Below are positions 3,597 to 55,415 of a DNA stretch of 64,000 nt, one piece after another (position 1 is the first letter of the stretch; every line of letters starts with the position of its first letter). Made by a program: the position numbers and the translations under genes. Below the pieces are notes generated by a model. The model saw nothing but the letters and a program-made list of their open reading frames with translations, was not told the DNA's origin and did no database searches. The stretch comes from Psilocybe cubensis (Eukaryota): positions 1,364,001-1,428,000 of the forward strand of contig CM039002.1 of assembly GCA_017499595.2 (NCBI GenBank). The letters run 5' to 3'.

Positions 3597-5499
3597 ATGG
3601 GAGCGATGGTTTCGACGTTGCGCATGGCTCTACAGACGTTCAAGTCTCTCTTAAATGACTTTGAAGTTGTTTCAAGTCGTATTTCTGAATCTCCAGGCAT
3701 ACCACGTCCCAACAGTTCTATTCCATACTGGACAATTCCAGCATCCCCTATCGCAAATCACGGAAAGGACTCTGATTTACTACAGGAAGTTGACGTTGTT
3801 ATTATTGGAAGCGGTATCACAGGAACTTCCATTGCCAAAGCTCTTTTGGAGCATAAAGACTCCCAATCTGGCGATACCACTGGGAGACTCAACGTTTTGA
3901 TGCTGGAGGCAAGAGATGTATGCTCAGGAGCAACTGGGAGGTGAGTGGATAGATCTGTAGTGGACCAGCTAAAGCGAAACTTCTGCCCATCAGAAACGGG
4001 GGGCATGCTTCGCCCATCATTTATAATGAATATTTTGGTCTAAAGAAACATCATGGTGCTGCTGTCGCGCTGCAGATAATCCAGTTTCGTTTGGCCCATA
4101 TTACGACCTTGCTCGATGTTGCAAAAGAAGCAGGGTTGTTAAACGAATCTCAAGCTAGGACCGTGGACAACTATGATGCCTTCATACAGTCTAGTTTTTT
4201 CGCCAACGCAAAAGGCGAGTTAGAAAGGTTCATGAAGGAGGTGCCTCCAGAAATAGCTGCGCAATTTGGGTCTACTGACGATCGCGAGACTATAGAGGTA
4301 AAGGATTTATACCAGTATTTAAAGCCCTTTGGTTGTAAGGAAATCTTCGTTATAGAAACTTCAACTTGCTACCTCTATTATTGGACTGATTTCAAAGCCT
4401 GGAGCATCCATCCATCCATACCGCCTTGTCACTGGAATTCTTTCAAAACTTCTGGATCGATTTCCAAAGTAAGTGGGTTAAGAACTTGAACACTGGACTG
4501 TATTTATTGACCTGGATTATAACGCGTATTAGCTTCAGGTTATACTCACACACTCCATGTACGGAAATTTCGACTGAGAATGGAAAGTATGTTGTAACTA
4601 CGCCAAAGGGGAAAATACAGGCACGACATATCATTCATGCCACAAACGCTTGGTCGTCGCACCTCCTCCCTGGGCTTCGGAGAAAGATCGTGCCCATTAA
4701 AGCCCACATGTCGACTCAAAGGCCAGGAAAGGGGCTCCATGTAACAGACAATGTTGATAATATCAACCCTTTAGGCGCGCTGGATTGGACTGGCCAACGT
4801 GCATTCGTATTCTACCCTGGTCATGTCGATTATGCGTACGACTATCTCACCCAGTTTTTACCTGCCCCATCTTCTCAAACTGCCATACTATCCTCCGATG
4901 ACAATGGGAACCCTCATAGTGCTGCAATATTGCCGACCGCAGGGGAGTTTATGTTTGGAGGTGGCCTCACTATTGGCGGAAGTAGCGAAGCAGCCTTGAT
5001 GGCCGCTGTTGGGGTTGCAGATGATGAACATACTGATTTCGCTGTCGAAGCCTATTTAAGTGGCGCCCTTCCGATGTACTTTGGCCAGCATTGGGGAGAA
5101 GAAGCTGACGGTAAAGTTAACGATCCTTCTGGCTCTGAGTGGCAGAAAGGTCGCGTAAAGGCGCTATGGACGGGCATTGTTGCAATATCGGCCGATGCAA
5201 ACCCTTGGGTTGGACGTGTGCCTTTGTCTGTTTCAGGGCGTCCGGAGCCTCAACGACCAGAGAGCACACGGTTAACTTCGAATGCAGAGTCATTCCCTTT
5301 ATCCCATTCTGGAGAATGGATATCTGCTGGATATAGTGGTGAAGGCATGGTACATGCATGGCTGTGTGGACGTGCTCTGGCGCACATGATACTTGGAGTT
5401 CCTGATCAAGCAAGTAACCCAACTTTACCAGCACCTTTCTTCATTACGGACAAAAGGGTTAAGCGAGCTAAGATTGAAGATTTTATGGACAATCTCTAA
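3597..5499 (+). CDS. FAD-dependent oxidoreductase (DAO family)
   Basis: Rossmann motif DVVIIGSGITG; EARDVCSGATG/RNGGH across an intron; IIHATNAWSSHLLP; C-terminal WISAGYSGEGMVHAW. Confidence 0.88.
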
Positions 5500-5958
5500 A
5501 TAGGATGAAATGTGTTTGGCTTGAACACATATTATCTTTGTTTTGTTATGCCTTTGAAACTGAAATACAATGGAGTGGATATTACTTCGGGAAAAGTATC
5601 TAGGATGAAAGATTGTCGAAAGTATCCAACTCGCTCTTTTTCATTTAACAATACATGGATTGTATGCGCATCTTTGAGTCGTGTCCGTTGATCGACTAGG
5701 TTGCACTATATTTCTGTCACGCTTGTAATCCCAAGGTCTTGTGCAATGATAACAGCGGCCTTCTCTCCAATTGCAATAGCTGTGTTGTACATATTAGCAC
5801 CAATATTTCCAGGTGCAATGCTACAGTCTGCTTTTTCTGTCAGAGATTATTCCAATTGAAAGGCGGATTTAACGCACCCGCAACTTTGAGGCCATGGATT
5901 CCGTACACATTCAATCGTTCATCCACTACCCCCTTCTGGTCTCTGGGTTTCATAGCAC

Positions 5959-6258
5959 TGTCAGAATCTAAGTAACGAGCGTGAAGCTCGATCTCAGTAC
6001 GTATCGTGGAACGAACTGAGTTGCAGTATCTACCTAAGTAACGAGCGTGAAGCTCGATCTACGAAGTGATGTAATAAGTAAATAATGAATGTTTAATGAA
6101 TAAACTTTAAGCATACCTCAGTACGTATCGTGGAACGAACTGAGGTATGAATCAAAGAGAAAACAAAGGAAATGGGGGAGCACGATACACGTGATGAAAG
6201 AAACGGATGAAGTAGTTAATCTATGTATACGGCGTATCCGAGTCGTCATATTCTAACA
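5959..6258 (-). repeat. 3' LTR (300 bp)
   Basis: Direct repeat of 11159-11458. Element-sense termini TGTTAGAAT...ATTCTGACA form an 8/9 inverted repeat. Confidence 0.98.
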
Positions 6259-9200
6259 CTCCCACTCGTGTGAGGGCGTAATCCCATGATGTTGCAGAAT
6301 TTCCAGTGTTTATCGTGAGATAAGGATTTGGTAAAAATGTCAGCGACATTATCTTCTGTGGGAACGAATCGTACTATCGCTTGACCCTTTCCAACGATGT
6401 CGTCTCGTAGATAGTGGTATTTCCGTTGAATGTGTTTGGTACGTGCGCGAAACTGTGCGTCTTTGGTGAGAATGATTGCAGCTTGATTATCGCAGAATAA
6501 TTCTGTGGGACTGGACTGCTGGTGTCCGATATCCTCGAAGAAAGATCGCAACCACGCCAGATGTTGTCCGGCATGGCATAATCCGATGTATTCTGATTCT
6601 GTGGACGAGAGAGCGACCATGCTTTGTCGTTTGCTTCCCCAACCGATTGCAGCTCTGGAGGTAATAAATACGAAACCGGATGTTGACTTTGAGGTGTCTG
6701 TGTCGCCGGACCAGTCAGCGTCGGAAAACCCGTGAAAATTGAAATCGCCTTTGAAGTCCATATCCATTGAGACGTCATTTCCATCAAATTCGAGTGTCAT
6801 GTCGGCCGTTGCTGATAAGTATCGTAGGACACGTTTTGCAGCTACCCAGTGATGTGCTTTTGGGTTTGCGCTGAATCTTCCCAAAACTCCCACTGTGTAA
6901 GCAAGGTCTGGTCGGGTTCCCATCATGGCATACATTAGCGATCCAACTACGCTTGCATATGTGACTTGTTTTCCGTCAATGTTCATCTCGTAAACTGTTT
7001 CATTGTTGCCGTCGGGGCTGTCTGATGTGAGGTGTAAGTTGGGTGCCATTGGAGTATAGATCGATTTCGAGTTAGACATGCCACATCTTTCGACCACAGT
7101 CTTGATGTATTGACTTTGGGATAAAGATATTGTTCTGGCCTTTCGATTTCGTGTGATTTGAATTCCCAGAATGTACGTGGCTAATCCCAAGTCTCGCATT
7201 TTGAAAGTTTCCGAAAGTTTTGATTTTATACTGTTCATGAATGGGCGTGAGTTTGCTGCAAGGAGGAAATCGTCGACGTAGACCACTAAGAAACAAACTT
7301 CGCCCTTTTTGCCTTTGAACACATAGAGACATGTTTCAGCATTTAATCGTATAAATCCGAGTTCTCTAAGTTTCTTGTCCAGCGTGTGGTTCCATGTCCT
7401 TCCCGCTTGCTTTAGGCCGTATAATGATCGTCGAAGTCGCCAGCAATGTCCTTTCGGAATCTCTACTCCAGCAGGCGGGTGCATGTACAGCTCTTCTTCG
7501 AGTTCTCCATTTAAATACGCTGTCGCCACATCCATTTGATCGAGCTCTAAGTCATATTTGGCTGCCAATGCAAGGATGATTCGGATTGATTCAAGATTTG
7601 CTACTGGTGCAAATACTTCCTTGTAGTCAATCCCTTCCTTTTGTGAGAAACCACGTGCAACTATACGAATTTTATATCGTTCGACGTTTCCATTTGCATC
7701 GTATTTGACTCGCGGAACCATTTTTGACGTGATGGGTTTGACGTGCTTTGGAGTCTGTACAATTTCGTACACATGGTTGTCGTTGAGACTTTGGAGTTCT
7801 TCAGTTAGCGCTGCTCTCCAGTGATGTCCATTTGGTCCGTTGAGTGCATCAATCGCATTTGTTATGATCTCGCGAGCATGTGGGCCAGTACTTGCAACAC
7901 CAGCGAAGTAGATGTCTTCATGATCTACGTCATCAGGGTTTGTGTGATCGGCCCTTGATTCAGGGTTAGGGTCGACTTCCAAATTTGGACTGGCATTGTT
8001 TGGTGGTGATTCGTCCGTAATCCCCGAGTCCGATTCTTCTTCCTCGACAACTGGCCAGTTTTTCCTCTCGACATTTCCACTATCTCTTGATTGCTCGGAT
8101 TGTGTTGCGGTTTTGGATCTTAAAGTTTTAGTGTTTGCACGGTGAGTGTCCTGCAATTTCTTTGCACGGTAATAATCATTGTTGGGTCTGTTTGGTAAGG
8201 GGTTTCGTCGAGGTCGGCTAGCTCCCACTGAGCTTGGGTCAGGTGTATAGGTCTTTCTCGGTCTTGTTATTTTTGGTGGTGGATCATTTACGGCGGTTGC
8301 TGCTGGAATGTCTGCAGGTGCGTCTTCTTGTTGTGTTTTAGCTCCCACTGACGCAATACTGCGCATGACTGTTTCAGCCATGTCCTCCCACTCGTCGTTA
8401 GATCCACTGCCTTCCATGTTATTTAAGTCGTCCAATTCAAGATCGGTAGAAGGAGGCAAATTTGGAGCATCTGTGTGTCGTAGGATTTCGGATTTATTTT
8501 GTAGGATGTCGTGTGATTTGTTTGGGGTGTTTGGTGTGTCATATGAACTTAGATCAATGGGATTGTCGTTGTTCTCATCAAAGCGAACGTGCCGACAGTG
8601 AAATACTTTTCGAGTTGCAATGTTAAGAAGGCGGTATGCCTTTCGCCCTGTTGTGTAGCCAAGTAGCAAGGATTTTATTCCTTTCGACGAGAATTTTCCT
8701 TTTCGTTTGCTTTTGGGTATTAGCGCATAGGCGACACATCCAAACGGTCGGAGCCATGATATGTCCACTTTCACCTTAAAAAGTTTCTCATAGGGTATTC
8801 CTCCAGAAAGTCCGGCAGCGGGTGCTCGTGCCATGATGAACGCCGCAGTGAGCATTGCGTCGGTCCAAAAAGACATTGGTACATTTGAATCTTCAATCAT
8901 TGCTGTTGCTAGGTTTACCAGTGTTTGGTTCATCCTTTCAGATATTCCATTCTGTTCTGGTGTATCCGGCGCTGTTATGCGGTAGGTGACTCCTGTACTG
9001 GCAAGTTCCTTTTTGAATTCTTTTGATAAGTATTCACCGCCGCCGTCAATTTGGAAGAATGAAACAAAGTTTGGTGAGAAGATTATTTGCCCAATCTCTT
9101 CGCCGAATTGAGCTTGAACATCTGAGCGCCATTGTTTGTAGATTCCGAGTGCTTCGCTCTTTTTCTTCATGAAATAAATCCAAGGATATCGACTGTGATC

Positions 9201-11000
9201 GTCGATGAGTGTGATCCAGTATTTGTATCCATGTCGATCTTGGGGTTTGACAGGACCTCCCACGTCGGAGTGAATTATTTGGAGTGGTTTTGAGGCTCGT
9301 TCTCCTTCATGGGATTTGAAGAATGGCTTTTTCATCTTTGCGAGTATGCAAGGCTCGCATAGTTTGGGAATTCCAGTTACTTTGTCAATGTTGACGATGT
9401 GGCCATCTGACACCATCTTTTTCAGCCTTTCCATTGATATGTGTCCCATTCGGCGATGTAGAATGTTTATATCAATAGAGCTGAGTGCGAATTCGGGATT
9501 GGTGTAGTCTCGTGGTTTTGCATCCAGTTGATATAGTCCATCCTTATCCGATCCTTGAAGAATGGATTTACGACCTTTTGACAGTTTGACTGTACATTTC
9601 CCATTCTTGAAGACTGAGTAACATCCTTTCTTATCGAGCTTGCGAACCGATATGAGTGTGAGTTTAAAAGATGGTATAAACAGCACATTGCTTAATTTAG
9701 TTTCGATGTTCTTTCCTCGGATAGTATCACAGAGGGTTATTGATCCGATTCCAGTAGCGTTTACAAAAGATTTGTCGCCAAATTGAATTGGTTTTGGCGG
9801 GTCTAGTGTTTGGAATGTACTGGGATCAAACCACTCACGACATGGAGTCATGTGTGTCGATGCACCCGAATCAAGAAGAATATCGTGTAATGTGTCTCTA
9901 GTCTCATTTGCTGCAAGGTAGGCTTGAATGCGTGTTTTCAATGCTCTATTTACGGACATGGGAGTAGGATTACTAGATGTGTATGCCAAACCCGAGAATT
10001 GGGCTTTGTCCATTGCCTCAGTATCCGATTCATCGTCGTCATCTGATGAGACGGCAGATTCATGCTTAGCCTTGTGTCCAGACTCCTTTTTCTTCCCCTT
10101 TGAAAGTGATGTGGATGCTGCCTTTGCCTTTTCTCTATCCATTCGCTTCTTAGCAAAGCACTCCTTTGTGCTGTGTGACGTCGAATCTGGATGAATGTCG
10201 CAGTGTTTGGGAGTCTTTGTTTTTGACGCTTTTGATCGAGCGTTCAACGCTGACTCGGCATTGGTTGATCCTTGAATTCGAGTTGCTTCGGAAGCGAGGC
10301 GGTTGGATATTTCAGCAAAAGAAAGCTTTGAATCCTTTGGCAATGAGTTTAGGACGGTTGACTTGAAGGTTTGCCACATTTGATCGTCGGGTAATGAGTG
10401 GAGTAAAAGGAATGCGAGAAATTCCGAATCGAATGGCTTCTTCATTGCAGTCAGTTTGGCATCCGCTGATGAAATCGATGATATGTGGTCTTGGATCGTT
10501 GATACGTCTCCGTCCCATTTCTGACTAACCATGCCGACAAACGTGTAGAATGCGCTTACTCCAACGTTGGTGTTTTCGTGCATGTTGATGAGCTTAGAGA
10601 ACAATGCGAATGCAGTTGTTTCCGATGCTGTGTCCAGTACCAGTCGATCAGATATGTGGTCGGTGATGATTCCGTGAGCCTTTGCATCGCGTATCTCCCA
10701 CGAATCTCCGAAAATAGTTGTCAGGCCAGCAGCAGCTGCTCGAGCAGCATTTTCGGCTGCAACAGCGGCTGCCTGAAGCTGTGTATCGTCTGGTTTGGCA
10801 TCTGCTGAGCTTCGAGCGGCTTGAGCGGCTGCTTGGGCTAGGTTGAGCGATGTTGAATCAGATGTGATTGGGGGTTTTGGAGTGATGGTGACATCAAAGA
10901 CTTTCTCTCGTTTGAGTTTGGCGGATATTCTGAGTTTCCAGATCTGGAAGTTCTCAGCGCCAGTGAGAACTGGGCATTTGGAGGTGTCCGAAGTAGCCAT
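6246..11000 (-). CDS. Copia Gag-Pol polyprotein, 1584 aa, uninterrupted
   Basis: Gag N-terminus LTGAENFQIWK; protease LLDSGAS; HHCC HRRMGH...CEPC; integrase HSDVGG/IDGGGEY/PEQNGISE; RT YVDD; RNase H FSDADW...CDNQ...ADIFTK. The stop codon lies inside the 3' LTR. Confidence 0.97.
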   Translation of the reverse strand: MATSDTSKCPVLTGAENFQIWKLRISAKLKREKVFDVTITPKPPITSDSTSLNLAQAAAQAARSSADAKPDDTQLQAAAVAAENAARAAAAGLTTIFGDSWEIRDAKAHGIITDHISDRLVLDTASETTAFALFSKLINMHENTNVGVSAFYTFVGMVSQKWDGDVSTIQDHISSISSADAKLTAMKKPFDSEFLAFLLLHSLPDDQMWQTFKSTVLNSLPKDSKLSFAEISNRLASEATRIQGSTNAESALNARSKASKTKTPKHCDIHPDSTSHSTKECFAKKRMDREKAKAASTSLSKGKKKESGHKAKHESAVSSDDDDESDTEAMDKAQFSGLAYTSSNPTPMSVNRALKTRIQAYLAANETRDTLHDILLDSGASTHMTPCREWFDPSTFQTLDPPKPIQFGDKSFVNATGIGSITLCDTIRGKNIETKLSNVLFIPSFKLTLISVRKLDKKGCYSVFKNGKCTVKLSKGRKSILQGSDKDGLYQLDAKPRDYTNPEFALSSIDINILHRRMGHISMERLKKMVSDGHIVNIDKVTGIPKLCEPCILAKMKKPFFKSHEGERASKPLQIIHSDVGGPVKPQDRHGYKYWITLIDDHSRYPWIYFMKKKSEALGIYKQWRSDVQAQFGEEIGQIIFSPNFVSFFQIDGGGEYLSKEFKKELASTGVTYRITAPDTPEQNGISERMNQTLVNLATAMIEDSNVPMSFWTDAMLTAAFIMARAPAAGLSGGIPYEKLFKVKVDISWLRPFGCVAYALIPKSKRKGKFSSKGIKSLLLGYTTGRKAYRLLNIATRKVFHCRHVRFDENNDNPIDLSSYDTPNTPNKSHDILQNKSEILRHTDAPNLPPSTDLELDDLNNMEGSGSNDEWEDMAETVMRSIASVGAKTQQEDAPADIPAATAVNDPPPKITRPRKTYTPDPSSVGASRPRRNPLPNRPNNDYYRAKKLQDTHRANTKTLRSKTATQSEQSRDSGNVERKNWPVVEEEESDSGITDESPPNNASPNLEVDPNPESRADHTNPDDVDHEDIYFAGVASTGPHAREIITNAIDALNGPNGHHWRAALTEELQSLNDNHVYEIVQTPKHVKPITSKMVPRVKYDANGNVERYKIRIVARGFSQKEGIDYKEVFAPVANLESIRIILALAAKYDLELDQMDVATAYLNGELEEELYMHPPAGVEIPKGHCWRLRRSLYGLKQAGRTWNHTLDKKLRELGFIRLNAETCLYVFKGKKGEVCFLVVYVDDFLLAANSRPFMNSIKSKLSETFKMRDLGLATYILGIQITRNRKARTISLSQSQYIKTVVERCGMSNSKSIYTPMAPNLHLTSDSPDGNNETVYEMNIDGKQVTYASVVGSLMYAMMGTRPDLAYTVGVLGRFSANPKAHHWVAAKRVLRYLSATADMTLEFDGNDVSMDMDFKGDFNFHGFSDADWSGDTDTSKSTSGFVFITSRAAIGWGSKRQSMVALSSTESEYIGLCHAGQHLAWLRSFFEDIGHQQSSPTELFCDNQAAIILTKDAQFRARTKHIQRKYHYLRDDIVGKGQAIVRFVPTEDNVADIFTKSLSHDKHWKFCNIMGLRPHTSGSVRI
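6259..6267 (-). other. Polypurine tract
   Basis: GAGTGGGAG immediately before the TG of the 3' LTR in element sense. Confidence 0.8.
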
Positions 11001-11146: not shown

Positions 11147-11158
11147 GGGCCCATAACC
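11147..11158 (-). other. Primer binding site, half-tRNA-iMet type
   Basis: GGTTATGGGCCC directly after the 5' LTR. It is complementary to the anticodon arm of initiator tRNA-Met rather than its CCA end, as established for Drosophila copia and yeast Ty5. Confidence 0.85.
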
Positions 11159-11458
11159 TGTCAGAATCTAAGTAACGAGCGTGAAGCTCGATCTCAGTAC
11201 GTATCGTGGAACGAACTGAGTTGCAGTATCTACCTAAGTAACGAGCGTGAAGCTCGATCTACGAAGTGATGTAATAAGTAAATAATGAATGTTTAATGAA
11301 TAAACTTTAAGCATACCTCAGTACGTATCGTGGAACGAACTGAGGTATGAATCAAAGAGAAAACAAAGGAAATGGGGGAGCACGATACACGTGATGAAAG
11401 AAACGGATGAAGTAGTTAATCTATGTATACGGCGTATCCGAGTCGTCATATTCTAACA
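11159..11458 (-). repeat. 5' LTR (300 bp)
   Basis: Direct repeat of 5959-6258, offset exactly 5200 bp. Confidence 0.98.
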
Positions 11459-14400
11459 AGCACATGTGCCAATCTGTTACTCGAGTGTCAACCGATGCAT
11501 AAAGGACGTATGAGGTCAGTTTTTCGTACCGAGTGCCAGGCGGTCTCAACTATTATGTGATTGTCGAGATAAATAAATAAATATAGGGCAGTAAAATTAC
11601 TATGACTGGAAACGCACCGTTTCGTCTATGATATTCGTCGATGGCAGCGTCATCTTCTTTCGAATAAACGATAATGGGAGCAGAAACATTGACAGGAGAT
11701 GCCGGTTGTATGGTTCGGGCATTACTATTTTCTTTGAAAATTGGATGTCCGACAACTAGATCCCCTGCGTAGTATTTGAGCCGGCGGCCAAGTTCACGAG
11801 CCTTTTTGTACCCCCATCGAAGGGAAACAAGATCTGACGGACTTGAGCAATTGGTAAGGCTACGCTTATGTTTACTTTTCGAACGGCTGGAAACATACTC
11901 GTCGAGAAACCCAGGATGAAAATCTAACGGAGTTTTTGCATCCTTAGAAGTGACATGGACGCTACCAACTGATGATGGATAACCCTTGTAAACCGAACAA
12001 TATGTCAGATGGATTAAGCTACCTCAAATTGATGAATATGTAATTACCAAGTAATAGCCAATGCTGTAATACTTCCCGCGTGGAACTTCAGGGTTGACAC
12101 CACAGTAGCTGACAACGGAGGTTGCTGGTCAGGCTTTGCTCGTTCGATATGCGGTCATTATAACATACGCAGCAAGTGGAGCCATTAAAATGACAGGTTT
12201 GTCGTGATGGTCAGCTTTAGCGAAATAAGATTGCCATCGATAGTCGAACTCAGGTGAGATTTCGGCAAGCTCCTCTTTGCTTGGGCGCATCCTGACCACA
12301 GCATCAAGTCCACTGGTGAGGTTGATGAGGTGAATCCGCTGAATCTTGTAAGCAAGCACCTACTTGTGCGATAACAAACCACTTCCATCTTTCAACCATT
12401 GCGTTTCGTAATCTGAACCGAATTAAAGGTTAACTGACTTTAGAGAACAAATGGACGTACCTTTGATTTCTTCGGTGCTTCCTCGGAAAATTTGATCCAT
12501 AGTGTCCGCGTCCTCTGTTGCGACAAAAGGAAGAAAGATGACGTTGTGGTCTAAATAGATGTGTACATGAGCTTGTTTTGAGATGTCAAAATCATTGTCT
12601 GACTAGCTTACCCATATAGTTCTCTCCGACGCCAGGGAGGTCCACAACAAGGTCTATACCAGCTTTGTTCAATACCGCCTCTCCACCAATCCCAGATCTC
12701 TCGAGAATTGCTGGTGAACCGAAAGCTCCTGCTGAAACTACGACTAGACGAGATGCTCGAGCGATGAGCAAAGGAGATTCTGTTCCCTTGGATTCATTAA
12801 AATATTCTACGCCAACTGCCCGGCCATCTCTGAATCGACTTAATTAACGAAATCATGTATGCTTTATAGTTGGAATGACCACTTACTCCAAAACGACGCG
12901 TGTAACTTTGTGTCTGTCCAAAATTGCAAGGTTTTTATTGCCCTCTTGGTTGTATATGTAGTGGTGTGCAGTGTCAGACCTTCGTCCCGTCTTGAGGTCA
13001 ATATACCTGATCTTATAAGTCAGATGTAATAGTCACTTAACCTGAACACAATGAAGGTACCTTTGCACTCGCTGAATAAGAGATGCAAATAAGTATGACC
13101 TCTTTTCACCACCCTGGATACACTCACTCCGTACTGATCACAGCTAGTAAATGTATTGGTGTCGTCTGTGATGGTGCGCTCCTGATCAAAGGCGGCTGCA
13201 ACTTCCAAAAAGTTCTCTCCGACATTTACTAAATCTGGCGCGAATGAAACTTTTAGCGGGCCTGAACTTCCATGTGTGGAATTCAGCGTATTTGGTTGGT
13301 GTGTTTCCGCCTTGATTGAATTCGAATTAACAAGGGTGCCTGTTAAGAATACCCTTCCACACCTTTTTTAACAGAGGAATCAAATACTTTGATCCCCAGC
13401 CTTTGTTTCCGTATTCAGTTTCCCAGTCATCGTAGTCAGATGCCGCTCCTCGAGTGTATACCATGACTAGGATGAGATATTAGAACCAAAATAAATTAGC
13501 ACATTGATATCTAACTTGCAATTGACACTCGAGCCACCTCCCACAGCATGCCCGGTCGGCACAATGGGTGATCTACCGAGAAGAGATGGGCTAGACCTGC
13601 CAATGTGGAAGGTGAAAGTTTCCTTGACCTGAGCGAAGTTGCTAAAATATCGGGCAGGTTGAACACAGTCTTCCATTCCTTTGACGTGTGGACCGGATTC
13701 CACAATCTAAGCGCCTTCCTGAGTTTCATCACTATTTCGAAAATTAGTTGACATACCAGAATCTTTAGGCTAGGGTCAGCCTCGGCAAGACGGCCAGCTG
13801 TGATGCAGGCTGATGCCCCTCCTGGTGTGTTTCCAAAGGATGGTTGGCATCAACGAGTTGGATATCATGTCTTGTCAAAGACGAACCTCCTGCAAAGATT
13901 ATATCATATGTCGATTCTGACCCTGCAGTTTGCTGGTGCGAATGCATATTCCCAGATAGGTTTGAGTATAAGACCAATCAAATGCCCAAAGCAAGCAAGG
14001 ACTTGACGAACTACTGTCCTGCGAGTTGCAATATTTATCGCTAACAACGCCCGGGTGGAACGGTGACAACTCATCCTCCATCATTCGGTAATTGGTTCAT
14101 TGAACGTGGCGATGTTTAATGCAAAAGGGTGCGCATGCGAAAGTCGAGAAGTTGTCAGATGTCCAAGCCATGTACTACAATGTACTATCGTGCTTGGCTC
14201 TTGATGTGCTGCGGAAACGGAACAACGGATAGAACAATAACATTAGCCGGCCTTAAGGTAAGCTAGACTCGGAGTCTGCGACCGGGAAACCTAGGGAAAG
14301 GGCACGAAGTCCAATGATTAAAGTTCCAGATCCTGTGAATGGTCATTCAAGTTTCAACATATCGGCTTGATACCACTAACTGCACGTACACATTTCCTTG

Positions 14401-41677: not shown

Positions 41678-41737
41678 ATGGCTGTATGTCGGGCATTTAA
41701 CGGATAACCTCCCGCTACGGAGCGAGTATTAAAGCGC
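41678..41737 (+). promoter_or_regulatory. Conserved promoter block upstream of GH5 copy A
   Basis: 31-bp ATGGCTGTATGTCGGGCATTTAACGGATAAC (30/31 identical to 44886-44916), followed by TATA-like GTATTAAAGCGC, which both paralogs share. Confidence 0.6.
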
Positions 41738-41783
41738 GCGTCTTCTGAAGGGGGCGAGAGAAGGCAAACCCCCTCGGCTCGAA

Positions 41784-43675
41784 ATGAGGTCCTCGTTCAC
41801 TGCGTTTGCATCTTTGGCGCTCTTGTCGTCTGTGTCTCCCGTCCTGTCGGTCCCTGTCTATGGCCAGTGTGGTGTATGCACCTTTTCGCTTTCCAGTGGT
41901 AGATGAGGAAAATATCTTGTGCTAACATGATGTGGTGTATCGTTGCAGGGACAAAACTACTCTGGCTCTACAGTTTGCGATGACGGATCAGTGTGCACTT
42001 ACTCCAACCCATGTAGGCGACATGCAATATCCAGAAACATACGCAAGGTCGTTGACCAATTTGAATGTAAACAGGGTATTCACAGTGTTTGCCCGGCAGC
42101 GCGACGACTCCGACACCCACCACGACAACTTCGACCACCAACAATGGCGGCACACCCACCTCCACCGGCACATCTCCAGGGAACTCCGTCTGCGCAGGCC
42201 CGCGCACCAAATTCAAGTTCTTCGGTGTGAACCAGTCCGGTGCCGAGTTCGGAGAGTCCATCTGGCCGGTAAGTCCATAGTTGCTAAATATAAAACAGGG
42301 ACACATGGGCGCTTATGCTTACAACCAATCTAACAGGGTACCCTTGGAAAGGAGTACACATGGCCCAGCCCGAGCTCCATTGACTACTTTGTCGGCCAGG
42401 GATTCAACACGTTCCGCGTGCCATTCCTTCTCGAGCGCATGAACCCCCCAGCGAACGGCATTGCTGGCGCGTTCGACCAGATGTACCTCAACGGTCTGAA
42501 GACGGTGCATATTCCAACTCTATCCTGCGGAAGTGTATGATGGATAACTGATGTAAATTCCAGACCGTCAACTACATCGTCGGCAAGGGTGCATATGCCG
42601 TCATCGAACGTACGATATGAATTGGCTATGGTGCGATCATGTTAGGCTAATTGAGGATACGTTTTGCAGCCCATAACTACATGAGGTACAATCATGGTAT
42701 CATCACGAGCGTCTCCGAGTAAGTTTGGCCCTGCACATACGAGCGCTTAACTTTTCTGATCAAATCTCGTTGCCAGCTTCTCTACTTGTGCGTACCCTGT
42801 TCGCACTCTGTTGCATATATACTGAGCTTATTTCTCAACATAAGTCTGGAGGAACCTTGCCAATGAATTCGTGCGTCGATTTCTTCGAGTAACATGACTA
42901 CTGATAGTTGAACTAATGTCCATAGAAATCGATCAGCAATGTCATCTTCGGTGAGTCCTTAAATTTTTTTTAGTAACTATTTCTTACAATATGCGTTCCT
43001 CTTACAGACGTAATGAACGAACCCTACGGTATCGAAGCTCAGACCGTCTTCAACCTGAACCAGGCCGCCGTCAACGCGATCCGCGCCGCCGGTGCAACCC
43101 AACAGCTCATCCTCGTCGAAGGAACCTGTACGTCCTCCCAGCAAAAAATAAAAAAAACAAATCCCACTCACTCCTCTCTCACAGCGTGGACGGGCGCCTG
43201 GACATGGCAGTCCTCCGGCAACGCAGCCGTCTTCGGCGCGATTAAGGACCCAAACAACAATGTCGCGATCCAGATGCACCAGTACCTCGACTCAGACGGC
43301 TCCGGCACGTCGCCAAACTGCGTCTCGCCTACGGTCGGCGCGGAGCGCCTGCAGGTCGCGACGGAGTGGCTAAAGGCGAACAACCTGAAGGGCATCCTCG
43401 GCGAGATCGGCGCGGGCTCGAATTCGCAGTGCATCAGCGCGGTGCAGGGCGCGCTGTGCACGATGCAGCAGTCTGGTGTGTGGATCGGTGCGCTATGGTG
43501 GGCTGCGGGACCTTGGTGGGGTAATGTGAGTGTTTTGCTTTTATTTTATTTTTTTGGAGCATTTTGTGGTGGATGCTGATGTGTGGGTTTGTGTTAGTAC
43601 TTCCAATCTATCGAGCCGCCCAATGGAGCTGCCATTTCGCAGATCCTCCCCCAGGCGCTCAAACCCTTCCTGTAA
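41784..43675 (+). CDS. CBM1-GH5 endo-1,4-beta-glucanase (GH5_5-like), copy A
   Basis: Signal peptide, CBM1 YGQCG/GQNYSGSTVC...YSQCL, Thr-rich linker, FGVNQSGAEFG, acid/base MNEP, HQYLDSDGSGT, nucleophile GEIG, WWAAGPWW. Confidence 0.96.
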
Positions 43676-44096
43676 AAACAGATTTCTGGGAATAGGCCAT
43701 TCGTACTAGAACCGTTCGCATTCGACTCTCGAGGGCGTTATCCGGTTGCTGACCCAGGAATGTCGCCTGAAGCTAGAAAAAAACTTGCTTTGATCTGAAA
43801 TGAAATATTTTATATTCCATCAATTCTAACTGAATATTGAAAGGTGTGAAAGTCGAAGAAGTATCAGCCAGAAATAAACAATATTATCATGACGTTGACG
43901 TTTCCGCGCCGGACAGGTCCCTCCAATTCCTTTCAAAAAGTTTCTTTCTTCTATGTTGCACACGTGGAAAACGAGAGAACAGGCGGGAAGGCCGCTTTAA
44001 CAGCCTGTGGCCATGATCTCATTCTGACCTTGATTTCGATGCTGACCTCTTTCCTTGCACTTATTTCGAGGTTTCAATGGTTCAGATGAAACCACT

Positions 44097-44250
44097 TCAA
44101 CACCATGGCTGGCAGCGCCCTCTTGGACCCAGATACCTTCTTATTCAACTCACACACCGTCCTGCACATCTCCGCTGCCCGTGCCCTCCAGCGCAAGCTA
44201 AAGAACAAGTAGCGCGCAGCAACACCAGAAGATGATGGGACTGACGATGA
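44097..44250 (+). pseudogene. Decayed copy of exon 1 of the downstream MFS gene
   Basis: TCAACACCATGGCTGGCAGCGCCCTCTTGGACCCAGATACC aligns by eye with TCAACACCGTGGCGGGCGACGCCCTCATCGGCCCAGACGCC at 48065. AAGAACAAGTAG here corresponds to AAGAACAAGCAG there (CAG to TAG). Confidence 0.75.
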
Positions 44251-44885
44251 TCCATTCTCTTCGTCTGTAATGGCACGCTCTCCCACGGGCCACGGGCCAC
44301 GAACATGAATCCTGATCATCTCGACGACACTCAAATACCAGAAATGAATAACAATAACCCCAGCGCTTGCGGATTTTACACTTTGTTTTTTTGTTTTCGA
44401 CGGTCGACGGTTGCCATCGCCATCATTCAATGCCGTGCAGCGGGGGTAAACTTCGGACTGTCCAACCTTCGACAGTAAGCCCGAGCAGCCAATCACAAGT
44501 GTCGAACTCGCCCCGAGCGCAGGCAGTTGTGGGGCAGTTTATACTAGGTTACACTTCTGTGTTCTTCCATAGCATCGAGCAATGATGCGTGATGCGTGAT
44601 GCTTAATATGGGCGCGCGGGGGTTGGGTATCAGGGTACTGTGCAAACATAGGACAGAGTTGGATCCGAGGAAACTTCATCGAGAGGCTTGAAAGGTCTCC
44701 TTTGCGCCTTTTTGTATTGGTGTTGTCCCCCCGGCCCGCAGAAGATATACGCGCTATATGTTTGTGTGTTTCCGAAGAAAGTCAAACGTTTCGCGAGAAT
44801 TCAGGTGATACCGTCTTTCCTATCCCCCACCCCCCCCCTCCCCAACCTATTGCGCGCATGTTAGCAGCCGGCCAGTGCGCGAGCT

Positions 44886-44945
44886 ATGGCTGTATGTCGG
44901 GCATTTAGCGGATAACTCTGAGTTACAGCCCAGGTATTAAAGCGC
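44886..44945 (+). promoter_or_regulatory. Conserved promoter block upstream of GH5 copy B
   Basis: Near-identical to 41678-41708, plus the shared GTATTAAAGCGC. Confidence 0.6.
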
Positions 44946-45016
44946 TAGTATATGGAAGGGAGGCCAGAGACGAACCGCCTCCACTCCCCATCCTCCCCAT
45001 CTCGACTCTGAGAAAA

Positions 45017-46986
45017 ATGAGGTCCTCGTTTACTGCGTTCGCGTCTTTGGCTGCGCTCTTGTCCGCTGTGGCTCCTGTGCTGTCTGTAGCTGTGTACGGC
45101 CAGTGTGGTGTATGCTTTTTTCTCGCGATGTGAATTGCAAAAGAATTTTTTGATCAAGCTGACGTTCGAATGCAGGGACAAGGCTACTCAGGCTCAACAG
45201 TCTGCGACTCCGGCTCCGTATGCACCTACTCCAACCCATGTAAGCTACCCTCTTCCCTCATCCCCCCCCTCCCCCCAAAAATTAAAAATAAAAATAAAAC
45301 CCACTAAATAAAACCATGTATCTGCAACACCCAGACTACTCGCAGTGCCTCCCAGGCACCGCAACAGCCTCACCAACAAAGACGACGTCGTCAGCGAGCA
45401 GCAGCGGCACGGGCACGCCCACGTCCACGGGCACAGTGCCGGGCAACTCCGTCTGCGCGGGATCGCGCACCAAGTTCAAGTTCTTCGGCGTGAGCGAGTC
45501 GGGCGCCGAGTTCGGGGGCACCGCGTGGCCTGTAAGTAAAGTTTTTTTGTGCTTTTGAGATTCGGTGATGTGCGCAGGGCGCTTATTTTTTTTTTTTTGG
45601 GGGGGGGGGATGTAGGGTGTCCTTGGAAAAGACTACACGTGGCCTAGCCCGAGCTCGATCGATTACTTTGTAGGACAGGGATTCAACACGTTCCGCGTAC
45701 CCTTCCTCGTCGAGCGCATGAACCCGCCCGCGAACGGGCTCGCAGGCGCATTCGACCAGACGTACCTCAGCGGCTTGAAAACCGTGAGTATATCATATTA
45801 ATATCATCCTCGCTAAGCTCGCTTTTTTTCGCTTTTTTGGGGGAGGCTGATGCTTTGTGTGTGTGGGTTGAATTTTAGATTGTCAATTATATCACGGGCA
45901 AGGGTGCATTTGCCGTTATCGACCGTACGTCTTGCGTTTTCGTGCCCGCTATGGTGATAATAACAGACTAGCTGATATGTGATGTGCAGCGCATAACTAC
46001 ATGAGGTACAACAACGCAATCATCACCAGCGTCTCCGAGTGAGTGTTCCTCTGAGCCTATGAGCGCTTAATTTTGTCTGACAAAGCATGGGGTTGTTTGC
46101 TAGCTTCACCACTTGTACGCGCTAAATTTGTGGTTTATTCGAAATTAATTAACCATTCTCTCCAAAAACCAGTCTGGACAAACCTCGCTGGTGAATTCGT
46201 ATGTGGATTTTGTTTGATATGTCATACGGTATTTGTTAAATGCCAATAGAAATCGAACGCCAACGTCATCTTCGGTGTGTTTTTTAATTTTTTTTGCAGC
46301 TTTGACTGGGTCTAACCTCGAATAGATATCATGAACGAGCCATACGGTATCGACGCTTCGACCGTCTTCACCCTGAACCAGGCAGCCGTCAACGCGATCC
46401 GCGCAGCCGGCGCAACCCAACAGCTCATTCTCGTCGAAGGAACCGGTACGTCTTCCCCCCCTCCAAAAAAACAAAAAAGAAATACCTACTCATACCTCTT
46501 TACAGCATGGACAGGCGCCTGGTCATGGCAATCCTCCGGCAACGCAGACGTCTTCGGCGCAATCAAAGACCCAAACAACAATGTCGCGATCCAGATGCAC
46601 CAGTACCTCGACTCGGACAGCTCCGGGACATCAGCCACCTGCGTCTCGTCGACGATCGGCGCCGAGCGCTTGCAGGAGGCGACGCAGTGGCTGCAGGCGA
46701 ATGGGCTCAAGGGGCTGTTGGGGGAGATTGGCGCGGGCTCGAATGCGCAGTGTATTAGTGCTGTGCAGGGTGCGCTGTGTGCGATGCAGGAGTCTGGTGT
46801 GTGGATTGGTGCGCTTTGGTGGGCTGCTGGGCCGTGGTGGGGTGATGTGAGTGTTTTGGTTCTTTTCTTTTGCTTGTGGTGGATGCTGATGTGCGGGATT
46901 GTGTATAGTACTTCCAATCGATTGAGCCGCCCAATGGCGCTGCTATCGCGCAGATCCTGCCCCAGGCACTCAAGCCCTTCCTGTAA
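45017..46986 (+). CDS. CBM1-GH5 endo-1,4-beta-glucanase (GH5_5-like), copy B
   Basis: Same domain order, catalytic motifs and intron positions as copy A; intron sequences have diverged. Confidence 0.96.
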
Positions 46987-48039
46987 AACAGACTTTGTGA
47001 TAAGTGCAGTGGGTTATCATTGTCATTGCGCTTGGGAAGCGAAGATAGATTGTAACAAAAGAGGTGTTGGATCTGAAATGAAATATAATACTGTGATATC
47101 GGTTCCCAGTGAGCGGTGTGAGCTGAGAAGGTGTGTTGGACTGAGAAGAAGCTTTGTGAGCACTCCTGTGTGGCGCCTGAAAGATCCGAGCAGGTTGGGA
47201 GTACTCAGTACAGAGGGATTCAGCTGCCAAGAGATCGATAGCAGACGTGGAGGTCAATTAGGGTTGCGATGAGATAAAGTAGGAGTCGAGTGCAACGTCG
47301 AAGAAAGTAAATTGTGTGACCTCGTGCCCGGTGGAAGGACGATGTGCAAGCCAAGGCCCCTAACTGGTGGTGCACTAGAATGTGCCAAGAGATTTGGAGG
47401 GACGTCATGGGAAGCGAGGAGGGTGATCCGCTGGTTTAGCGATGTTGTGATGCAGAGATATGGATTCCGGGGCCGGGTTTGAAACGGAATGGGTAATAAA
47501 GCGCCCAAGGAGAGTGGATGGCAGAGGCGCTCGCGCTTTCAGGATGCCAGAATTGGAATGTAGTCTAAAATGACGACAGAAAGAGGTAGCACGCGATAGA
47601 AGATGGGACAATTAGACACGGGCGACGGGATATGAGAAGCGGCAAGGCGACAGCATGTGTCGCGCCTGGCTTGTCCTTGGGTGTCGCATGACTGGGGATT
47701 ATGGTGAGAGTTTGTTTGAAATAGAGAGTTCATGGGTAAGATAGATGATAAGTAAGAAAGTTATGTTGGGACGGAGATAAGAGACGAAAATAGAGGAGAG
47801 ACGCACTGCGGGCACGAGTGTTCACGTACGAGTGCAACGAGTCAGGATGACAGCCGAGAAGCCGGAAGCTATCAATGGATGTCTAGTGAAGAGACGCTGG
47901 GCTGCCAGTCCCCCTCATTTCTAATCTCTGCCTGCTCGTGTCTCACCGCCTCCGCCTCGCGCCTGCCGCGCCTGTCCTTTCATATCCCTTATATTAACCT
48001 GCCTCTCCCTCCCTCCCTCTCTCCTCACACTTCTCCCTC

Positions 48040-51350: not shown

Positions 51351-52265
51351 TCACAATTGGCTGGAAAAGAAGTTGTTACAGTGTTAGCCTCATAATTAGA
51401 AATCAAGAAGAAGAAATAAAAAGACACGGACTCGACGAAGAAAGGGGCGCCGTTCAGTGTACCTTCGCATGATCCGTGCTGAGTGTTCCCGCAGACATGG
51501 AACACCTCTGACGCAGCGACACCCTGTATGTTCAAAGGTGACAATCAGCATTCAGCAAAACGGTATTTGAATAATATTATATATATATATTTTGTAAAAA
51601 AGAAAAAAAGGCGCGTACAAAGTCGTTGAAGCAGTATTCTGTCGGTTGCGTCGAGCTGGTGCCGAAAGCGGCGTATTCGCAGCTGTTGAGGATGAATGCG
51701 AGAGCCTGGCCGGGTGGGATTGTGAAGGTAGCCGCTGCAGAGCACACATATGTGGGCCAATGTTCTCGTAGAACACATTGATGATGCTACACACGATTGT
51801 TTATAAGAGAGTTTGCGAGGTTGGTGCAGTCCGCTGCTTGAATATGATCGGTAGTAGCGGAGCACATGCTAAAGAAACCTTTTTCGGGCGACCGTATGGG
51901 TATTTACAACTGTAACAGCGAAAATGGAGAAGTGCTTACAAGGAACACCGCAGATGCAGTTGGCTGTCGTGCACTGAGAAGCAGCGCGCTTGTCCTGCAG
52001 AGATCGAAGTGAGTTTGCGGCCGCTCGAGCTTTGGGGGCCTCGTGGATGTCGTTGGTGCAGTTGAACCTCTGCATGGTAATGGTGTGGCCAGAGGGCATA
52101 GTCACGGGTGTGGAGTCGATAATGTGCTTGTTGTCGCATCGTCTGGCGTTGCCTGTATCAATGAGAGACAATCAGCATTTTGTTCAACGTGAATGAGGAA
52201 GAAGGGCTACCCAAAGCAATGCTTGACGCTACTGCGAGGGCAACAAAAAGGAACGTCGAGTACAT
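51351..52265 (-). CDS. Small secreted Cys-rich protein with Kex2-type KR site, copy 1 (6 exons)
   Basis: Signal peptide MYSTFLFVALAVASSIAL, pro-region ending QDKR, mature part with 10 Cys, ending FFVDQL-TGA. Intron positions match copy 2. Confidence 0.85.
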
Positions 52266-52885
52266 GAGTTTAGAAGTAGATTGACGAGAAGCTGCAAAAT
52301 GTTCAACTGATGATTTTTCTTTCGCTCTTCGAGCACCCGCCTTTAATTTATACCTTTGGCGAGGCATCCAGTCCAACGCATTCACCTCGGTCCTCAAGCC
52401 AATAGTCCATGAACGTCAACTCCTGAGACCAATCACCCCCACCCCCTCTGAAAAAACCGCACGAAGAAGTAAAAGTAACGATCAGAAATCAGGCATTGCA
52501 CTCAAAAAAGTCTGAAGCATGTCAACGGCGACGTTGACCATTCAAACAGCCGGAGCTCATTGCCCTTCTGGGTTGCGCCAAATACAGTGCGGACGTCGGT
52601 AGGTCGAGGTCTGTCGTCCGCAGCATCAATGGAACAGTCGATTCCAACTTATAGGGGTGTGTGCACGCTACAAAAATACCGACATGTGTGATCACCGGTG
52701 TTAATGAGTGAGCCACCGCGTCCAAGGGGAAGGCCATTTTTGTGACTGTATTTTGCGAGCGGGCAAGATAGGGGATGAGAGGACAATGGTCCAGAGTACA
52801 GACTAAATACCTATAGTCCGCCAGGTCGATTTTGAACAGAGATGTTGTTTGGCTTTTCGTAAATTGCTAATTGTTTGGGGTAAAC

Positions 52886-54270
52886 AATATCGCTCGAAGG
52901 GATTCCTGCGAGATATAAGAGAAGAAGGAAATATAATTGTGAGATTGAATAACACAAGATATCAAGTAAAGTGAGGACTATATATCCGTGGTGACACAAA
53001 TTTCTGTGGGTGTGTAGCTGAACATTGGCTGCGAGTCGAAGTGACCACAGGAATTAAAGGACACGTGATCGTTAGTACAGGTCTGACGCGATGAAGACGC
53101 GACCTGGATGAACTGATTTGGAAGGACCCGGGAAGCTCCCGTACAGGCATGTCCGGATTTTCGCGGATTTGAGGCCAAAAAATGGCAATTTCTTTGTCCA
53201 GTTCTCGCGGATTTGAGGGCGCCGCAGGCAAAATTTTGGCCAAACAAAGTCCGGTTTGGCGGATTTGAGGCCCATATTTTTAAAAAAACTTCTGTAGTAA
53301 TGGTTCAAAGGCGGCATGCCGCAACCATTTTTCCCAGATGCAGCTAATTGTTGGCCAAATTTGGGGCCGGGATCCCGCTTAGATTGCAATGATTGGCCAG
53401 CGTCTATTATCTAAGAGCGGTAGACGGATGGAAATCAACGGAAATACACAGTAGTAAATCGAAGCAAGGTTACATTTCCTATATACAGCATATTAGTGAA
53501 ACTTGGACGTCTTTTCTCTGCTACCCTGACATATTTCTTCACTATCCTGATAACTAGTAATGGAGGTTCCACCTCCTCAAAATCCTTCCCCTCGAGGCAT
53601 GTAACACCTAAATATCTACTCCATATGTTTATTTTGCAATCAATTAATGACTTGTCGAGCCATCGAGTGGTTTTGCAAGCTCGCCCCGCAGGGCTGAAAA
53701 AAAAATCCTAATTGGGAAAGCCCCTATCGGGCATTGTCCGGTTTCGCGGATTTGAGCCCCAAAATCTCGCGGATTTGAGGGCAAAAATTGGGATCCCAGG
53801 CGGACATGCTTATAGGGGAGCTTCCCGGGTCCTGATTTGGAGAGGAGTTGGGCTGCCAAAGGCCTGAGCGACTAGGTCAAAGCCACACTAAAGCCAGTTT
53901 CGAAGATTGTGATGTGGCTGTACCAAACACTAATAAGAAGAAAGACGGGAGCGGTGGGTGGGATCAGAAATTCCCTGGAGAAAATCATTCCAGAATTCGA
54001 AAACTTAAAGTTCAGAGACAGAAAAAAAGCGAAATCTCCTGGAGGCGAGAAAGAACCTCGAGATGGGGGAAAGGCACATTCTCGAGGTGGTATAGCAGGT
54101 CCACAAAATTGAAGAAGGACATTGTATTTTAACTGCCTTCATGTCACAAATAGAATGATCATTTATCTGTCAAAAGAATTGATGAAGATCAGTGAAGATC
54201 CCTTAGGGGAAAATCCTTTTTTCTCCCTCTCATGTTATCCGCAGTTGAGCTCGTTTGCGCACTCATCGCT
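52886..54270. mobile_element. About 1.4-kb insertion upstream of copy 1, absent from the paralogous region of copy 2
   Basis: Homology with the copy-2 upstream region breaks at 52885 and resumes at about 54271. Flanked by GGGTAAAC/GGGTATAC (7/8 match); the paralogous site is a single CGGTAAAC at 56084-56091. Confidence 0.55.
53123..53833. mobile_element. Non-autonomous TIR DNA transposon (MITE-like), 711 bp
   Basis: 33-bp TIRs (30/33 match) starting AGGACCCGGGAAGCTCCC, perfect 8-bp flanking direct repeat GATTTGGA (53115-53122 and 53834-53841), five internal GCGGATTTGAG repeats, no transposase ORF. Confidence 0.88.
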
Positions 54271-54531
54271 GGGTATACGCATTGCCAATGTCCAGTCGTT
54301 TGCTTCAGCTGATGACGTCACAGTACGAGAAGTAAAAGAAAGAAAGAGGATTAAAGAAAACAGGATCTGTTGAAGTGCGCCTCTCACGACATCGAGTAAT
54401 GATTCAGACTTTTAGGTACAGAATACAAGTTACCACTTGCCGGCTTGAACAGTTTCAGTACGTAGATAACACAACAGTAGACATCCATAATGGCCAACGT
54501 GGAGTAAACCAACCAACGGAATACAAAGACA

Positions 54532-55415
54532 TCACAGGAGGTTCAGTTGGCTGATAAAAAACACGTGAGTCCCATAATGTACGAAAGCACAGTAAAACGA
54601 ACACGTACTCGACGAAGAAAGGGGCGCCGTTCAGTGTACCTTCGCATGATCCCTGCTGGGTGTTTCCGCAGACGTGGAACACCTCCGACGCAGCGACACC
54701 CTATATTTTCAAAGGAAACAATCAGCAAAACACGATACAAGTGGCACAGAAAAAAGCAAGAAAGGCGCTTACAAAGTCGCTGAAGCAGTATTCTGTCGGT
54801 TGAGTGTTGCTGGTGCCGAATGCAGCGTATTCGCAGCTGTTGAGAATGAATGCGAGAGCCTGGGCCGGTGGGATTGTGAAAGAAGCCGCTGCAGAGCAAC
54901 TGTTTGAGCCAATGTTCTCGTGGACCACATTGATGATGCTACGCACGGTTGCTTATAAGAGAGTTTGCAAGATTGGTGCAGTCCGCAGCTTGAATATTCG
55001 CGGTTGTAGGGAAGCACTTGTTAAAGAAACCTTTCGGGTGATTGTATGGGTATTTACAATGGTAAGTGCGAAAAAGGATAAGTGCATACAAGGAACACCG
55101 CAGATGCAGTTGGCTGTCGTGCACTGAGAAGCAGCGCGTTTGTCCTGCAGAGATCGAAGAGAGTTTGCGGCCGCTCGAGCTTCGGGGGCCTCGTGGATGT
55201 CGTTGGTGCAGTTGAATCTCTGCATGGTAATGGTGTGGCCAGAGGGCATAGTCACGGGTGTGGACTCGATAATGTGCTTGTTGTCGCATCGTCTGGCATT
55301 GCCTGAATCAATGAGAGACAATCAGCGTTTTGCTTGACGTGAATGAGGAAGATGGGCTACCCAAAGCAATGCTTGACGCGGCTGCGAGGGCAACGAAAAG
55401 AAATTTCGAGTACAT
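54532..55415 (-). CDS. Small secreted Cys-rich protein with Kex2-type KR site, copy 2 (6 exons)
   Basis: Paralog of 51351-52265; ends FFVDQLNLL-TGA. Confidence 0.85.

Follow-up and report, generated by a model that had tools for sequence, protein, structure and literature searches.

We found that the long terminal repeat (LTR) of a Ty1/copia retrotransposon, located in a 64-kb window of the Psilocybe cubensis genome (the whole stretch of DNA analysed here), carries a perfect hairpin one arm of which is antisense to the 5' splice site of an intron contained in the LTR itself, and that across related LTRs this arm co-varies with the splice site. We consider that the stem probably acts as a switch gated by the transcription start site, by which the 5' LTR loses intron 1 through splicing while the 3' LTR keeps it. 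We also lean towards the broader reading that a widespread fungal copia lineage uses such an arm to toggle a donor on and off between its two LTRs, with the spliced copy serving as R and the introns being rebuilt every cycle though the packaged RNA is spliced.

The element matches Ty1/copia (Pseudoviridae) in its identical 300-nt LTRs, 5-bp target-site duplication, primer binding site (PBS), polypurine tract (PPT) and gag-PR-IN-RT order with an RVT_2 domain (Table 1). In 5 of 8 genome matches, the complement of the PBS falls within the tRNA-Met(CAT) anticodon arm, a complementarity that points to priming by part of tRNA-Met, as in hemiviruses. A second copy of the element, likewise with identical LTRs, lies on another contig. 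The open reading frame (ORF) contains an rve integrase and RVT_2, with no Penelope-like GIY-YIG endonuclease found in it, and its copia order in a single ORF differs from the spumaretroviral (Spumaretrovirinae) plan, which has env and places integrase after reverse transcriptase.

Table 1 Coordinates (window positions) of the copia element and of the features within its LTR
Feature	Position	Strand	Remarks
5' LTR	11159..11458	-	300 nt, TG...CA, identical to 3' LTR
3' LTR	5959..6258	-	Hairpin copy at 6112-6149, the proposed place of masking
Target-site duplication	11459..11463	-	5 bp; partner copy 5954-5958
Primer binding site (PBS)	11147..11158	-	Complementary to tRNA-Met(CAT) anticodon arm; half-tRNA type
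Polypurine tract (PPT)	6259..6267	-	
gag-pol ORF	6246..11000	-	Single, 1584 aa; copia gag, protease barrel, integrase, RVT_2
Donor-masking hairpin (putative)	11312..11349	-	11-bp stem 11349-11339 / 11322-11312
U3 arm CATACCTC	11342..11349	-	Complementary to 5' splice site -3..+5; presumed U3
Initiator-like TCAGTT	11338..11343	-	Probable transcription start at A 11341
Exon B1 (first exon)	11317..11341	-	
Intron 1	11259..11316	-	58 nt, GTATGC...TAG; splicing suggested by precise B/A join in copy 2
Exon A1	11234..11258	-	With 5-bp hairpin 11256-11242
Intron 2	11168..11233	-	66 nt, GTAGAT...TAG; holds B2 (11220/11217-11193) and A2 (11192-11168)
U5-like LTR end	11159..11167	-	

The LTR reads, in order, U3, exon B1, a 58-nt GT-AG intron, exon A1, a 66-nt GT-AG intron and a final 9 nt. 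The 3' part of the 66-nt intron is an exact joined copy of the two exons (B2-A2), and removal of both introns from the 5' LTR leaves a sequence identical to that of the LTR end before splicing; B2 and A2 together would represent R, the acceptor of strand transfer. An invariant CTGAG, which reads as the initiator-like CTCAG on the opposite strand, closes B (11193-11197 and in relatives), and in copy 2 it may provide intron 2 with its branch point. An ATTAAA in intron 1 was dropped as a candidate poly(A) signal, not being common to the introns of relatives. In three relatives (L135, L137 and L185), the AG ending intron 2 borrows its G from the PBS, and U5 is essentially absent.

The stem consists of 11 uninterrupted Watson-Crick pairs closing a 16-nt loop, inside which 3 further pairs form, with a minimum free energy of -19.7 kcal/mol (z = -6.5; as stable in 0 of 200 shuffles), and the same stem is present in the identical 3' LTR. 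The original prediction of a perfect 10-bp outer stem was right as to its perfection and fell short as to its length, and the 3' arm does include the donor GTATG, as had been claimed, covering bases +1 to +5 of donor 1 (11316-11312). In read-through RNA the stem is predicted to extend by a further 5-6 bp (11357-11352 / 11310-11305). Stems of at least 10 bp with loops of at most 30 nt occur five times in the window, two of them being the LTR copies, and when the non-duplicated part of the LTR was shuffled, a stem of at least 10 bp arose in 10 of 3000 shuffles and one of at least 11 bp in 1 of 3000. The remaining perfect stems of 10-11 bp in the window lie at 1133-1162, 1274-1319 and 60167-60206. 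A search for Rfam cis-regulatory RNAs returned nothing above the gathering score (one match, 23.4 bits against a threshold of 49.9).

A second hairpin, CGAGC-TTCAC-GCTCG, had been described in block A and is indeed present (-6.7 kcal/mol). Across the 20 subfamilies introduced below, however, it reaches -4.7 or better in 3, is marginal (-0.7) in 2 and is absent from 15, 3 of which had A exons clipped by our parser; we therefore rejected it as a general part of the arrangement, since it is clade-specific and strong in only 3/20. It is found in the clade whose A exons are long, where it may bring branch point and acceptor closer together.

To place the hairpin among relatives, we examined the genome of 46.6 Mb in 21 contigs. 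A PBS pattern gave 102 matches, most of which were sampled while known same-family repeats were skipped, yielding 61 distinct contexts in 20 clusters. Our first set comprises 20 two-intron subfamilies, hand-picked at one per distinct LTR, including one metagenome locus (L023) and excluding L115, a decayed copy whose donor is mutated; in a metagenome scan of 23 loci, this LTR type occurred only in L023 and L030 among the loci inspected. Sixteen of the 20 rows parsed cleanly, with intron 1 of 48-65 nt and intron 2 of 49-67 nt, all GT-AG. LTR identity is about 55-75% between clusters and 55-87% between nearest neighbours. The first-set subfamilies are spread across five deep pol clades, in trees that were quick or weakly supported at depth, carried long-branch warnings and drew on relatives from this genome and one metagenome only (L100, L076 and L123, which have no pol of their own, were left out).

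Six core pairs of the stem are formed without exception in the 20 subfamilies (120 of 120 cells). Five of the six are invariant and so uninformative alone, which leaves the variable part as the test: because the core may be held by other constraints (the initiator TCAG, the exon end AG/GT and, in copy 2, a possible CTGA branch point), only positions +2 to +5 test pairing. At +3 to +5, 40 of 60 cells are Watson-Crick paired with the arm, compared with 22.7 under permutation (0 of 100,000 permutations as high), with G-C, A-U, U-A and C-G pairs all occurring at +4 and U-A and C-G at +3. At +6 to +8 the count equals chance (7 vs. 7.0). Resampling one subfamily per cluster gave median p values at +3 to +5 of 0.0003 (12 clusters), 0.008 (9 clusters) and 0.017 (6 clades, where p < 0.05 was reached in only 71% of draws), and was never significant at +6 to +8. 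Within the youngest clade, which has 10 members, covariation at +3 to +5 was likewise detected (p = 0.002), and in L109, L133 and L135 pairing is maintained across bulges. Perfect stems of 7-13 bp are found at donor 1 in 19/20 subfamilies, compared with only 2-7 bp at donor 2.

A search with the core pattern itself gave 208 genome matches (both strands counted), against 16 for a reversed control. From 40 further core-pattern places we obtained a second set of 19 subfamilies, after setting aside 15 without a second B copy and 6 near-duplicates; as this set was picked by the core, and several members come from clades already used, only the extension counts as a test. Here again +3 to +5 exceeded expectation (31/57 vs. 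17.6 permuted, p = 0.0001), with a borderline result at +6 to +8 (15 vs. 10.8, p = 0.056). The percentage paired at +3 to +5 (71.7) was little above that of a control slid to -2 (66.7), but the covariation score was 0.52, compared with at most 0.29 in slid controls. Covariation across related LTRs, which had been proposed as a check on the original prediction, is thus present between the arm and donor bases +3 to +5 in both sets. We also tried G-U content and sense/antisense energy as proof of sense-strand function and found no sense advantage: the sense fold was better in 14/39 and worse in 24/39 subfamilies, with 9 G-U pairs in sense and 18 in antisense.

The boundary of identity between the two B copies offers an indication of where transcription begins, since each cycle would overwrite B2 from the start site onward, so that the edge of identity would mark the start. 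Among 39 subfamilies, this edge falls at the A of the AG in 26, 1 nt upstream in 7, 2 nt upstream in 5 and 3 nt upstream in 1, and identity never extends to the base pairing with -1 or +1. The single subfamily with an edge 3 nt upstream is this element's own family, for which the earlier observation that identity begins at CTCAG (11344) is accurate. In 11/20 subfamilies the A of the edge lies within TCAGTY, which fits the INR consensus TCAKTY (PMC3601003). On these sequence grounds A 11341 appears a more likely start than C 11344, although 11344 may serve as an occasional one. More generally, the copy-identity edge would provide a way to infer transcription starts from genomes alone.

We then compared the predicted cost of opening donor 1 (positions -3 to +6) in RNAs with different starts. 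First-set medians were 14.4 kcal/mol in read-through RNA, 7.9 in RNA begun at A-3 and 4.1 in RNA begun at A, and second-set medians were 15.4 for read-through vs. 4.4 from A. Donor 2 showed no switch (medians of 4.5 vs. 4.4 kcal/mol). For 200 background AG/GTR sites the median was 4.5 and the maximum 12.4 kcal/mol, and 18/20 read-through costs lay above all 200. Mean pairing to U3 was 1.00 at -3 to +1, 0.8-0.6 at +2 to +5, 0.44 at +6 and 0.2-0.35 beyond. For this element's family, opening costs in local folds were 16.7 (read-through), 8.0 (from 11344) and 2.2 kcal/mol (from 11341), and those in long context were 17.2 (in the 3' LTR), 8.7 and 6.0, respectively.

The claim that a U3-derived arm masks the donor in read-through RNA is therefore backed by conservation, by compensatory changes restricted to the U1 site and by folding in 39 subfamilies. 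That the stem persists in these 39 subfamilies although its letters change speaks against a one-off accident. A start at CTCAG (11344) had also been claimed to free the donor, and this part did not stand: exon bases GAG (-3 to -1) stay paired, the donor is left half-paired, and the opening cost from 11344 (8.0-8.7 kcal/mol) exceeds the predicted gain from the U1 duplex at donor 1 (-5.8 kcal/mol, with what we take to be the U1 motif), so that the donor would not be free. Even in RNA begun at A, donor bases are still 42-80% paired to something in the ensemble. Two single-intron families also have a stem, mostly on the exon side, with opening costs of 10.6 vs. 2.9 kcal/mol in L081 and 7.1 vs. 4.3 in L007, whereas the L013 and L087 families, which lack the duplication, have no masked donor (2.8-5.2 kcal/mol). 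The L013 family is high-copy, with a 181-nt LTR in which a long hairpin spans two AG/GT sites, and in the L087 family the donor is a perfect GTAAGT and a duplicate is absent.

Under the mechanism we propose, the position at which an RNA begins would set the state of the stem. In the 5' LTR, transcription beginning at the A of the initiator-like CTC-A-G (11341) would leave the U3 arm untranscribed and thus absent from the RNA; donor 1 would be open to U1, introns 1 and 2 would be spliced, and the RNA would begin B-A-U5-PBS. In the 3' LTR, where RNA is read through U3, the arm would pair with the whole U1 site (-3 to +5) and intron 1 would be retained. Intron 2 is unmasked, and would need no mask if the RNA were cleaved ahead of its acceptor. 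Strong-stop cDNA made from the spliced 5' end would land on the pre-spliced B2-A2 at the 3' end, and copying onward through A1, intron 1, B1 and U3 would restore an intron-bearing LTR, with B1-A1 overwriting B2-A2. The benefit may lie in a host that needs introns for mRNA accumulation, as basidiomycete genes often do according to the relevant passages of PMC3744415. An intron-keeping LTR element must treat two identical LTRs differently, and the hairpin offers a concrete 8-nt mechanism for doing so, one that natural compensatory variants make directly testable. For the single-intron relative L021, sequencing runs, two of them from one study and RNA only by our guess, gave 1 and 3 short contigs, which covered the 5' leader only, with none over U3, the intron or the 3' LTR and with no joint in those two runs.

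Collapsed and rearranged LTRs are only consistent with this model, because DNA recombination could explain each of them too. For instance, L085 and L153 (G000:C5 about 3275041 and 3296066) are the two LTRs of one element, both intron-free and with a common 5-bp target-site duplication, and the collapse therefore preceded integration; full collapse to U3-B-A-U5 is also seen in L154/L155 and L120. The metagenome LTR L030:250-405 keeps intron 1 and the arm and is without intron 2 and its spliced copy, while the solo LTR L174 (G000:C8 about 1043200) has its exon-intron-exon-spacer unit doubled ahead of the spliced copy. In the 5' LTR of L019, copy 2 is fused to a downstream AG/GTCGCC site with ~46 nt missing, possibly through use of an alternative acceptor; in L086, unrelated DNA is joined at the same AG. 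Among 21 donor-less pattern matches chosen by eye from 58, none had lost intron 1 only, as a leaky switch would produce.

Among other explanations, we regard as fairly improbable the idea that the main role of the stem is to guide the first strand transfer, hiding B1 at the 3' end so that cDNA lands on B2, with donor masking a by-product. Landing on B1 instead would delete both introns, and collapsed U3-B-A-U5 LTRs (those listed above) do exist; moreover, the arm of single-intron families pairs mostly with the exon (in L007 all of it, with ~23 bp, and in L081 from -9 to +1). The two-intron families, however, co-vary at intron bases +3 to +5, which are absent from cDNA, first-set covariation stops where the U1 site has its edge, at +6, and B2 plus A2 would offer longer homology than B1 alone if cleavage occurs in A2. 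It is unlikely that, as in foamy viruses (for which the pertinent section of PMC3694450 supplies a precedent), the chief reason for the stem to block U1 from donor 1 at the 3' LTR is to allow cleavage and polyadenylation there and not to rescue the intron. In 31/39 subfamilies the 12 nt preceding copy 2 include an A/T-rich motif (AATW/ATAA/TATA), compared with 1/39 for copy 1, and this motif is a candidate 3'-end signal that splicing at the 5' LTR could remove; yet donor 2, which is closer to this motif, is unmasked, and the motif is missing from the spacer of this element's family. Donor masking, strand-transfer steering and poly(A) licensing can coexist.

Quite unlikely, in our view, is that the inverted repeat has nothing to do with splicing and is instead a hairpin of the DNA or of the antisense strand, or a neutral quasi-palindrome which template switching keeps matched. 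Antisense folds are equal or slightly stabler (mean -20.6 vs. -19.9), and the hairpin also forms in single-stranded DNA (-11.6/-12.1 kcal/mol), but non-cognate controls nearly match the strand bias (0.52 vs. 0.69), which is therefore compositional. Pairing across bulges is not expected from template copying, the arm covers the U1 site and ends where copy identity begins, and donor 2 has no comparable repeat. Identity reaching 3 nt upstream of A in this element's family would fit a start upstream of the arm, with the stem a constitutive TAR-like leader hairpin at both ends and the intron rarely spliced; this we hold to be very improbable, as copy 2 never includes the arm and is a precisely spliced copy 1 even between families with unrelated exons (B mismatches are 0 in most rows), which requires regular copying of a spliced 5' end.

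A start-gated switch thus remains our preferred reading, and its closest working analogue is the foamy virus LTR, although the element does not itself belong with those viruses. There (Schrom et al. 2013, PMC3694450, in the section on the switch), 13 upstream U3 bases extend a stem, so that at the 3' LTR fewer U1-complementary bases are left unpaired. As in that account, one LTR sequence takes two folds, with a donor in both LTRs downstream of the start (here a probable one), and hiding of the U1 site by U3 at the 3' LTR is indicated in our element by prediction and covariation. The output in foamy virus is the choice of poly(A) site, independent of splicing, and the section describing the switch mentions no LTR-contained intron or spliced copy (PMC3694450). 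In the copia element, by contrast, the arm is directly antisense to -3 to +5, co-varies with it and guards a complete LTR-internal intron. HIV-1 is similar in that U1 at the major splice donor occludes the poly(A) site in the 5' LTR, so that splicing signals distinguish the LTRs (passages of PMC12789967), and differs in having this donor only near the 5' LTR, which makes masking unneeded (as outlined in PMC3694450).

Introns in the LTR retrotransposons EVADE, BARE1 and Ogre are inherited via unspliced genomic RNA, whereas the genomic RNA of the copia element would be spliced at its 5' end and its intron inherited from the 3' LTR. Those introns are, as here, sense-strand spliceosomal introns within an LTR retrotransposon, and yield subgenomic RNA according to the parts of PMC12786077 that treat them, where intron loss upon retrotransposition is also given as the classic proof of an RNA intermediate. 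Hemivirus-type Pseudoviridae share the LTR-PBS-gag-pol-PPT-LTR plan, the PR-IN-RT order and a PBS matching an internal part of tRNA-Met, and are profiled with a plain U3-R-U5 LTR, without LTR introns, spliced duplicate or switch (PMC8515867). Introners, in the relevant portion of PMC12130899, are whole elements acting as host introns. In the passages of the mostly open-access literature that we consulted, we found no account of LTRs that bear introns together with a spliced copy of them or with a hairpin over the donor, and repeat-library annotations in supplements could describe such LTRs.

If the proposed switch is real, LTR structure switching of the foamy-virus kind would reach into copia elements as well, and a transposon would be seen to have adapted to a host whose mRNAs depend on introns to accumulate. 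Penelope-like elements reportedly retain introns through an RNA stage with involvement of a terminal repeat (Arkhipova and colleagues, 2003); they have a GIY-YIG endonuclease and a pseudo-LTR and use no tRNA priming, and we know of no start-gated switch of this kind in them.

Elsewhere in the genome, one copia family forms head-to-tail tandem arrays (G000:C2:2202929-2250083, C4:2869773-2883238 and C10:2234841-2249604) with spacings of about 4714, 4484 and 2950 bp. The window itself also holds an FAD-dependent oxidoreductase (DAO) frame at 4390-5499, which ends ~460 nt from the 3' LTR, a tandem pair of GH5 cellulase genes ~3.3 kb apart (41678-47272) and a second tandem duplication with a spacing of ~3.15 kb (51424-56091). 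The cellulase genes, like GT-AG introns of 50-60 nt, are in keeping with a mushroom host. A MITE-like element lies at 53123-53833, with 33-nt inverted repeats 645 nt apart and internal 25-nt repeats.
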